Shown here: positions 18,916-21,164 of the stretch, piece by piece
Layout: the number at the start of each line of letters is the position of its first letter
Position numbering within the stretch: the stretch's first letter is position 1
Assembly: GCA_951406725.2 (NCBI GenBank)
Contig: OX597824.1
Span: forward strand, 28,582,001 to 28,646,000
Length of the DNA: 64,000 bases
Direction: 5' to 3'
From: Octopus vulgaris
Taxonomy: Eukaryota
Program-made: the position numbers and the translations under genes
The notes under the pieces: model-generated
What the model was told of the DNA's origin: nothing
The model's database searches: none
What the model saw: only the letters and a program-made list of their open reading frames with translations

Positions 18916-19070
18916 CTGTGTGTGTATATATATGTATAAGTATATAAATTTACATATATATATATATATATATATATATGTACTTGCATACGTCTTTATG
19001 AGATTGTGTGTATGTATGTATGTGTAGGTTTGCATAGGCGTGTGTATGTGTGCGTATCCATGTGTGTACA

Positions 19071-19103
<33 letters not shown>

Positions 19104-19638
19104 TCACTTGAATTATTGCTCTCTCACACATTTTAATCTTTCTGGAAACACACCAAATGGTTTTAGCCTTTCCAAAGTAAAGGGGAAAAAATAACACACA
19201 TAGTCGCGCCTGCACAAACCGCCTGGTGACAGTACTACGATGATGATGCTTATAGCTGCTGCTGCTGCTGCTGCTGTTGCTGCTTCGAATGGCAAAAACG
19301 ACGATGGAGACGGTGATAAAGTAAAAGGGAGAATCCTAATGTCGCTGACCATGGTCATCGTGTGTGCCATCATTATCATCATCAATGATGATTGTAATGA
19401 TGGTAGGGTTTCTGTTAGAGTTCTTTCTGGCGGTTGTAGTCATAATTCTGCACAATGACCCTCTCTAGCTCTGAAATTCCAACAATTTTGATGTTTAAGG
19501 AAGAATTTATATTTTGCCCAAACATGTCACGATTCATTGGCACACATATCTTAACTGCATGATTAACCATCGAGGGCATTTCTACAAAGCTTTTCTATGA
19601 GCTAAAAGTAGCAGTTAACTCTTTCCTTGTCCTGTATA

Positions 19639-20082
19639 TGTTATGTCGCACGTTCGGATGACCTACACTCACTTCGACTCACTACTCGGCTCCTACTTCT
19701 GGTCTGCTGTGCTCTTCCATTTCGGCACCATTCGAAACTTCGTCGCCACTGTTATGTCGCAATACTACACAGTGGCTGTGTGAGCTACGCAATCCTCGTC
19801 GCCACTGCTATATCGCACGTTCGGATGCCTGCTACTCAAATCTTCTCCGACTGCTACTCTCCTACTAATCCACTACCGAGATCTGCACCGGCGGGGCGAC
19901 TTTCCGATGCCCGGTCGTGTAGGAGGGCGCCGCGGCGTGCATGGAAGCCGCGGTTTCCATGCATGCCGCGGGCGCGAACCCGGGTGAAGCCGACCGCCGG
20001 TGCAGATCTCGGTAGTAGAGTAGTAGGAGAGTAGCAATCGGAGAAGAGTTGACTGGCAGGCATTCGAACGTGCGACATAGCA
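19639..20082 (-). mobile_element. 444-bp GC-rich non-autonomous TG..CA element with palindromic terminal unit and PBS-like motifs
   Basis: TSD GTATA at 19634-19638 and 20083-20087. Ends are TGTTATGTCGCACGTTCG / CGAACGTGCGACATAGCA. Foldback spans 19806-20082, and tRNA 3'-end matches lie at 19720-19730, 19740-19748 and 19792-19804. Confidence 0.8.
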
Positions 20083-20554
20083 GTATATCACATGTCATAC
20101 AGAGGTCACATTTCCCTCGCGTCCATGCATCATATATGATACACGTTCCCATTTATGTTTTTAAACGTACCAGAGGAAGTTGGGACCCAAATAAATAAAA
20201 CTATATTACCCAGAACGTGTGAAACAAGAGCAAACAAGTCTGAAAAACAAGCGTGGACTTTTACGTGACATTTATGAAAATGCTTTAGACAAGTAAATGA
20301 TTATACTTGCTTGCAATTTCAATCCAAGTTGTTGAAATAAAATAAAGACGGAAAACGATAGCGAGAAGAGACCTTAATATCTGAAATAATGTTATTGAAA
20401 TATGAACGATTAAAGCACGCCTGGAGCCATTCAGGAAATAGAAGCTGTTACCATATGCCGCATAATTTCATTTTATTCATCGTATTGATGATCAATGTTT
20501 TGAAAAACCCCACTTTGGAGATTTGATTCTCTAGGTTATTCACCTTATATGTGA

Positions 20555-21164
20555 GTAGATTCGTTAATATGAGGTGGAATGCTAAGGCGGTTAGCTTGAA
20601 GAACAAGAAGCTAGAGGACGTCTATCCACCCTTGATGATCAGAATTTGAAATCAATATTCGAACAAAATTCACAAGAAAGCGTCAGAGAAACGTCTCATA
20701 TGCTTGGTGTTTGTAAGCAACTGGAAGAAATGAATGTACACTTGAGACCCTTGTTTGTTAATCGATGTGGGTCAATTCTGCTCCACGACAACACTCGACC
20801 GCACTTTTCCAGGATGACACTGCAGGAACTCATAGACTTGGAATACGAAACTTTGCCACCTTCTCCATATGCTCCTGATCTTTCACCCACCGACTACCAC
20901 TTTTTAAAGCATCTACACACTTTTTAAAGAAAAAAAAAACCTTGCTGTTCCCAAACCGAGGACGAAGTTGATTTTGAAGACTTCGTGGAATCAAAACCTT
21001 TGAGATTTTATCGAAGAGACATAAATGACCTTGTCCATTGATGAAATAAATGCATAGCTGCTCAGCGACCATATCTTGAATAATTAAACCATTGTATAAG
21101 TTCAGATTTTCAAAGACTATCAGCTTATTTATGAAATCGGCCATTATTTTCCGAACAACCTAAT
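20555..21164 (+). mobile_element. Mariner (DD34D) relic with right TIR
   Basis: ILLHDNTRPH..ETLPPSPYAPDLSPTDYHFLKHL. The right end ccattattttccgaacaacctaat resembles a mariner TIR. Confidence 0.88.

Follow-up and report, generated by a model that had tools for sequence, protein, structure and literature searches.

The window analyzed here is a 64,000-nucleotide stretch of the Octopus vulgaris genome (assembly GCA_951406725.2, contig OX597824.1, positions 28,582,001 to 28,646,000, forward strand). At 19639-20082 it carries a 444-bp element with TG..CA ends and a 5-bp duplication (TSD), GTATA, on both sides, in agreement with the boundaries drawn earlier by a model from the letters alone (the sequence-only reading). 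GTATA is found 12 times among 5,202 bases of flanking sequence. In a related organism (organism B), we found the empty site, in which position 19633 is joined to 20083 and 449 nucleotides (444 + 5) are skipped; it was seen in one contig in each of two runs of one sample (X5 and X6). Hence, both the insertion and the 5-bp duplication are genuine. Nor is the insertion an assembly artefact, since contigs from organism A (run X1; 19300-19666 and 19984-20397) span both junctions. A further run of organism A (X2) covers the right junction, and the left one by only 5 nt. No meaningful ORF was found near the element. A short high-copy repeat of very high contig depth lies beside it at 20110-20151 and is unrelated to the LTR family described below. 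The parts of the element are as follows.

19634..19638, plus strand: left TSD GTATA, from the sequence and from the empty site skipping 449
19639..19711, minus strand: U5 end of a family LTR, GGT subtype, outer integrase end (inner boundary approximate)
19712..19720, minus strand: first three gag codons (ATG GAA GAG), joined to U5; DUF7083 gag in full copies
19720..19730, plus strand: private leader variant (1/32 copies), not a primer site (PBS); formerly read as a tRNA-Phe-like motif
19738..19748, minus strand: PBS2, tRNA-Ser GCU; 9 nt paired here, 11 in most copies
19750..19805, minus strand: 56-bp family unit, made up of a 1-nt spacer, PBS1, a 30-nt spacer and a 12-nt LTR-end copy
19750-19761, minus strand: 12-nt LTR-end copy in the 56-bp unit
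19792-19804, minus strand: PBS1 in the 56-bp unit, 13 nt paired with tRNA-Ser(GCU)+CCA
19806..19870, minus strand: U5 of an LTR, AGG subtype, left arm, likely copied from the right arm
19871..19894, minus strand: short inverted copy of the 3' end of the 28S fragment, with snap-back junction CCGCCGG/CCGGCGG
19888..20018, plus strand: 28S rRNA fragment, ~113 nt, 94-97% identity to host rDNA
19954..19971, plus strand: 18-nt local inverted duplication between CCGCGG palindromes, within the 28S piece
20019..20082, plus strand: U5 of an LTR, right arm, second integrase end, joined to 28S at GTAGTAG/GTGGTAG
20083..20087, plus strand: right TSD GTATA, from the sequence and from the empty site

As first described, the end motif lies forward at 19639, 19750, and 19806 and inverted in a copy ending at 20082, and both internal copies sit behind TCGTCGCCA plus 1 nt. 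The outer U5 (19639..19711) matches the 3' LTR ends of two family copies (L074 and L076) at 26/26 positions, and the LTR ends nearest to it are of the GGT type in 8 out of 10 cases. The 30-nt spacer of the 56-bp unit contains an ACACAG-CCA-CTGTGT stem. On the minus strand, the element reads antisense U5 from the exact LTR terminus, antisense 28S, a short sense 28S copy, and sense U5, then a G, PBS1, the unit, PBS2, ATG GAA GAG, and the U5 end. The two arms (19804-19894 and 19994-20084) are 91% complementary, with 8 differences in 89 nt, and the hairpin fold scores z = -15 against 100 shuffles. Both arms have TGCTAT, where reads of the family mostly show TGTTAT. A 277-bp foldback had been proposed here; the fold is real, but perfect pairing is confined to the ~89-bp arms, and the core (19888-20018) is 28S rRNA.

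This 28S core had been missed in the sequence-only reading. Its identity came from a genome search, with LSU confirmed by Rfam on the rDNA loci; Rfam on 19000-20700 itself gave 13 weak matches and no rRNA or tRNA match. The end motif of the family is absent from 28 rDNA-like loci, one chance-like match apart. Polinton or CACTA termini, suggested by the AGTAG/CACTA text, were dropped after the core proved to be 28S. Elsewhere, dispersed 124-195-nt 28S fragments that overlap the captured piece occur in L046, L047, L050, and L051 (locus ~1440-1640), which were selected by the query and are without this family's ends. An rDNA array with a period of about 18.3 kb lies at G000:C20:23.95-24.07 Mb (L060-L063), where SSU and LSU are long (2.6 and 4.9 kb by Rfam span).

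A genome search gave 765 candidates, and nearly all of the 40 best, which were scored, match 19712-19850 only. This segment is an LTR-retrotransposon 5' leader and, on the window minus strand, runs in the order LTR (about 110-150 bp), one G, PBS1, spacer, 12-nt LTR-end copy, one G, PBS2, and ATG. Twenty longer stretches were read, and copies among them possess a PPT and a second LTR and are flanked by 5-bp TSDs; the parent layout is LTR-PBS-unit-PBS-gag..PPT-LTR over 4-5 kb. Two direct LTRs, PBS, PPT, and TSD are all present in L072, L074, L075, L076, and others. The natural ORFs of L075, L076, and L072 encode (Pfam) a DUF7083 gag, zinc knuckle, protease, RT, RNase H, and integrase, a domain order (PR-RT-RH-INT) that identifies the parent as a Gypsy LTR retrotransposon. 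Its protein relatives are single ~1,350-aa Gag-Pol ORFs, many labelled K02A2.6-like; the family is presumably of Mag type. The retroelement origin proposed earlier is supported by this autonomous parent (gag-PR-RT-RH-INT), which shares both leader and U5 ends with the window copy.

The PBS-end module of the window copy is inherited from this parent. The short-LTR subfamily carries the 56-bp (PBS + LTR-end) duplicate. In a long-LTR sister subfamily (L271, L273, and L274), a single PBS stands directly before gag, so the 56-bp unit is probably the derived state. Four candidate single-PBS sites, three of them the sister subfamily, were seen among 100 matches listed of 113. The number of repeated modules had been expected to vary, and in relatives it ranges from 0 to about 106. 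Sister LTR families (L250, L255, L259, and L268) share this PPT and LTR start but differ in their LTR bodies. Several LTRs (L006, L007, L024, L026, L028, L158, L172, L275, and L305) carry a recurrent insertion of ~200 bp in their CTACT-rich U5, possibly a small element that targets this microsatellite.

The tRNA-Ser(GCU) primer site postulated earlier is real, as both PBS1 and PBS2 pair with the host tRNA plus CCA over the lengths given above. Host tRNA-Ser(GCU) genes gave 33 pattern matches, and 8/8 tested loci were called Ser-GCT; gene clusters lie at G000:C3:70.85-70.90 Mb and C7:103.87-103.89 Mb. The companion claim of a tRNA-Phe site does not stand: the motif is a double substitution private to this copy, it overlaps the start of gag, and no LTR end adjoins it. 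Another motif with a tRNA-Ser-like ending, GGTTCAACYGGAACCCTCGTCG, belongs to a different repeat (132 matches; L084-L103 and others), and among the 100 matches listed the pattern is mostly one unrelated repeat.

The chimera itself is single-copy, since a U5-28S junction query matched the window locus alone (1/28 candidates, all 28 scored). A query with the 277-bp unit returned rDNA matches only (40 best of 191 candidates scored). The sequence-only reading had taken the 444-bp palindrome for a self-propagating, non-autonomous family. The element does retain two PBSs and two integrase ends, but it has neither a U3 promoter nor a PPT, and with the results of both queries we consider such a family extremely improbable. 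Like a TRIM, the element has a PBS after the 5' repeat, a TSD, and a length below 1 kb. Its ends are inverted U5 copies rather than two direct terminal repeats, the family PPT expected before the 3' repeat is missing from the 444 bp, and a single copy does not make a multicopy family. Instead of one complete LTR between TSDs, as in a solo LTR, only U5 parts match. A single-copy, rearranged solo LTR of an ordinary Gypsy family had been named as the finding that would speak against the earlier proposal. The single copy and the ordinary Gypsy parent were found, but the element is not a rearranged solo LTR, since the U3/R head of the LTR is missing and leader, gag start, and rRNA are present. A MITE or Ginger DNA transposon was rejected because the termini are LTR ends of an RT-encoding element. 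An rRNA-derived SINE, which we take to be the SINE28-like kind with a multicopy rRNA head and a LINE-type tail, was also rejected: the window element is single-copy and tailless, and the dispersed 28S pieces have varied boundaries. Hence, the window element is a single-copy, TSD-flanked chimera of Gypsy leader, U5 ends, and a 28S rRNA fragment; this 444-bp copy is an accident with no sign of function.

Exact patterns located 97 unit ends and 170 LTR ends followed by a non-G base in the genome. We examined 92 of the 97 unit-end matches, representing 90 loci, and an LTR start lies upstream of the unit end in 81 of them. These LTR+unit copies (minis) have a TSD with at most one mismatch in 74/81 cases (exact in 47), compared to a mean of 4.8 and a maximum of 14 in a shuffled control; an upstream PPT was found in 0/81. 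The TSDs indicate that the internal unit end is used by integrase. Meanwhile, 90 of the 170 LTR-end loci comprised 60 plain solos, 3 solos with inserts, 3 3' LTRs, 13 loci without a TSD, and 11 of other classes, and minis make up an estimated 40% or so of solo-like copies. Minis are as diverged as solo LTRs and full copies. They are scattered over the LTR tree in both subtypes (34 state changes versus 32-48 shuffled), on a weak tree with 121 columns, 1 starred branch, and one GGT group rich in minis. One 72-bp mini (L193/L194), in which a GACGA match joins an LTR head to the unit, has been duplicated together with its flanks, 410 kb apart.

One might regard minis as ordinary solo LTRs of PBS2-primed elements in which both LTRs include the unit. 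Standard reverse transcription from PBS2, an established pathway, would be predicted to give such extended LTRs, and about 40% of 3' LTRs should then be extended. We read all 30 exact PPT+LTR matches (16 short-LTR with the end, 3 short without the end, and 11 other) and found 0/16 extended 3' LTRs in the short-LTR subfamily (P about 3e-4, on extrapolated counts) and 0/23 with the end found across all subfamilies. Together with the missing upstream PPTs, this makes the idea very unlikely. Alternatively, integrase might cleave the internal end in full-length cDNA and LTR+unit pieces might integrate, with the window foldback of separate origin. Retroviral integrase cleaves LTR-LTR junctions internally, and such cleavage would account for the TSD, the missing PPT, and the short 3' LTRs in full copies. 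It would, however, call for a second mechanism to explain foldback and gag-U5 minis, and we judge it decidedly unlikely.

The best reading of the minis is that short tRNA-primed cDNAs were integrated directly, by a mechanism that we infer as follows. With tRNAs on both sites, priming at PBS1 would remove the upstream RNA, so that PBS2-primed DNA would stop at the PBS1 complement. Plus strong-stop DNA (U3-R-U5-PBS) would then anneal to this short PBS2-primed minus DNA, and finishing it would yield LTR+unit with two valid ends. Further transfer to a long minus strand would restore a full double-PBS element with a short 3' LTR, while direct transfer would lose the unit (L272) and slippage would add units. 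Idle short minus DNA would fold back into minis with two unit ends. If cDNAs integrate in this way, some "solo LTRs" would not come from recombination.

Foldback minis with two unit ends are found. Eleven unit-end matches are without an LTR start; six of these lie in four foldback loci (4/90 unit-end loci), each with an inverted unit end at its start and a unit end at its finish.

L126, 1108-1521: foldback mini, 1 TSD mismatch, switch at ACAGTGGC
L200, 221-319: foldback mini, 1 TSD mismatch, fold at the unit's own stem
L204, 457-534: foldback mini, 2 TSD mismatches, switch at ACAGTGGC
L219, 495-654: foldback mini, 0 TSD mismatches, switch at GCTACGA

They have three different junctions and no rRNA. 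The mechanism in the sequence-only reading, that tRNA-primed cDNA folds back or re-primes, fits best at the family level, where two-ended foldback minis recur independently, but it does not describe a 444-bp family. The unit also occurs in an array at G000:C3:44313386-44319452 (L276 and L277), where one LTR is followed by about 106 tandem 56-bp PBS-end units and CTTAC repeats flank the array. In the two array ends that were read, the units are only 2-3% diverged, so the array expanded or was homogenised after insertion; we read it as a satellite born from the leader unit. Taken as a package, it is about an even bet that the module routinely integrates PPT-less single-LTR and hairpin-primed cDNAs, that ~40% of solo-like copies were never full-length, that the module seeds satellites, and that the window copy is a fossil of rRNA capture and self-priming within the particle.

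Judging from genomic fossils, the window chimera likely arose in one aberrant round of reverse transcription and was likely integrated by two U5 ends. We give the explanation as a whole, i.e., this origin together with the family-level cDNA model, a probability of roughly two in three (0.68); the parts, polarity, TSD, empty site, single copy, and parent family of the window element are direct observations. First, tRNA-Ser would prime at PBS1, and the minus strong-stop cDNA would stall in the AGTAG-rich U5 and jump to GUGGUAG in 28S rRNA, a 7-nt match with one G-T pair. Second, after ~113 nt the cDNA would snap back at CCGCCGG and copy its own U5 and the attached tRNA, which would replace the PPT-primed plus strong-stop. 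Third, the PBS copy would anneal to another minus strand, donated by a copy with the other LTR subtype, which would bring in the unit, PBS2, gag start, and U5 end. Finally, fill-in would open the hairpin into an inverted repeat, and integrase would insert it with a 5-bp TSD.

Several observations are consistent with this origin. The unpaired loop reads as antisense 28S on the strand whose start is antisense U5, which fits cDNA made on an rRNA template. The inverted arm runs precisely to the LTR terminus and abuts the TSD. The GGT subtype of the outer U5 contrasts with the AGG subtype of both arms, and two LTR subtypes in one element point to two donor RNAs; the full elements checked have the same LTR type at both ends in 8/8 cases, single substitutions apart. 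Arm divergence (8/89) resembles LTR-pair divergence in five full copies (7-11%), and the 18-nt inverted insert within the 28S piece runs in the direction expected of second-strand synthesis. Five or six PPT-less minis have a gag-to-U5 join like that of the window element, in which the first 9-70 nt of gag are retained; PPT-less gag-start-to-U5 copies with TSDs are L008, L013, L018, L272, and L289, the first three of which came from a query that favours gag-U5 copies. The join in the window could be a deletion after insertion. The earlier proposals of a 5-bp TSD made by integrase and of a cDNA foldback that gave two equivalent ends, here of U5 type, are supported.

Other observations count against it. 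Two snap-back bases differ from host rDNA toward perfect pairing and need later hairpin-templated correction. By ungapped identity over the final 42 nt, the window element (31/42) cannot be told apart from two normal elements (31 and 33/42). The arms are more diverged (9%) than the flanks are from organism B (39/649, 6%), a difference within error for 89 nt. A second foldback with two LTR ends and a TSD was found at none of the 90 LTR-end loci. One inverted LTR case among these loci, L328 (G000:C6:107184450-107186150), is a solo LTR with a TSD; across a palindromic spacer, 360 bp away, lies an inverted LTR copy that ends at the LTR terminus beside a PBS-like remnant, and no TSD surrounds the pair.

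Could the structures have arisen after integration instead? DNA repair might have swapped the U3/R head for inverted U5 and rDNA, and minis might be deletions from the 12-bp internal end to that of the 3' LTR. The family contains many internally deleted elements (0.45-2.7 kb), dispersed 28S fragments occur without this family's ends, and deletion between two 12-bp ends would remove the PPT but leave the TSD intact. Yet the inverted arm extends precisely to the LTR terminus and borders an exact TSD, and foldback minis with two unit ends are left unexplained. A share of ~40% minis would be too high for 12-bp homology against LTRs of 110-150 bp. In a weak test, the terminal C/T state of minis does not track their own LTR end (C in 6/39 with T; T in 21/33 with C). 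We therefore consider rearrangement unlikely and favor an aberrant round of reverse transcription.

Solo LTRs are routinely taken as scars of LTR-LTR recombination and are used to infer DNA loss. The duplicated PBS and end in this family provide a built-in marker that separates two origins of one-LTR copies, and recombination of the full elements sampled does not account for dozens of one-LTR copies that have TSDs. If our reading is true, solo-LTR counts are not a pure measure of recombinational DNA loss. The duplicated primer site and end likely let half-finished products of reverse transcription insert directly as dozens of tiny elements. Two identical right ends would suffice for germ-line integration, and self-primed strong-stop DNA can likely be completed. 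In addition, the family allows the origin of a 6-kb satellite to be traced back to a retrotransposon leader.

The parent family resembles Ty3/Gypsy elements of the K02A2.6-like kind in its TG..CA LTRs, PBS, PPT, 5-bp TSD, and gag-PR-RT-RH-INT order. It differs in its leader, where a duplicated PBS and LTR end serve as an integration end, and the window copy differs further by having no U3/R, PPT, or coding region. Minis share one LTR and a 5-bp TSD with solo LTRs made by LTR-LTR recombination, but they extend past the LTR by PBS+end units that were found on no sampled 3' LTR. Dual initiation at two primer sites has an artificial counterpart in engineered retroviral vectors with two PBSs, reportedly described by Voronin and Pathak (2004). 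A search of openly accessible literature found no natural LTR family that uses a duplicated PBS and end in this way; the parent family may already be catalogued in Repbase or Dfam. In PMC3212995, "two PBSs" means different tRNAs in different copies. TRIM/SMART elements and Cassandra, Helenus, and Ajax, as covered in PMC10886601 and PMC6934838, are like the window element in being below 1 kb and non-coding, with a PBS, a TSD, and dependence on Gypsy. Unlike them, the window element has no direct LTR pair and no PPT, and the tandem arrays here repeat the 56-bp PBS-end unit rather than LTR plus internal region. The rRNA-derived sequence in Cassandra and Ajax is 5S, whereas here it is 28S, captured once and not a promoter. 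LTR-mediated retroposition involves a template switch to cellular RNA at short matches and, as in the window, joins that RNA to a retrotransposon at a 6-7-nt match; there, RT returns between direct LTRs, whereas the window element has a snap-back and inverted U5 ends (PMC5131818). In HIV-1, a hairpin at the cDNA 3' end likewise primes U5 copying, and the self-primed minus strong-stop DNAs are dead-end products in vitro, which counts against the proposed origin; here, such products appear to have been completed and integrated in the germ line (PMC6088434). Every ingredient is known, and the interest rests on the family-level pattern.
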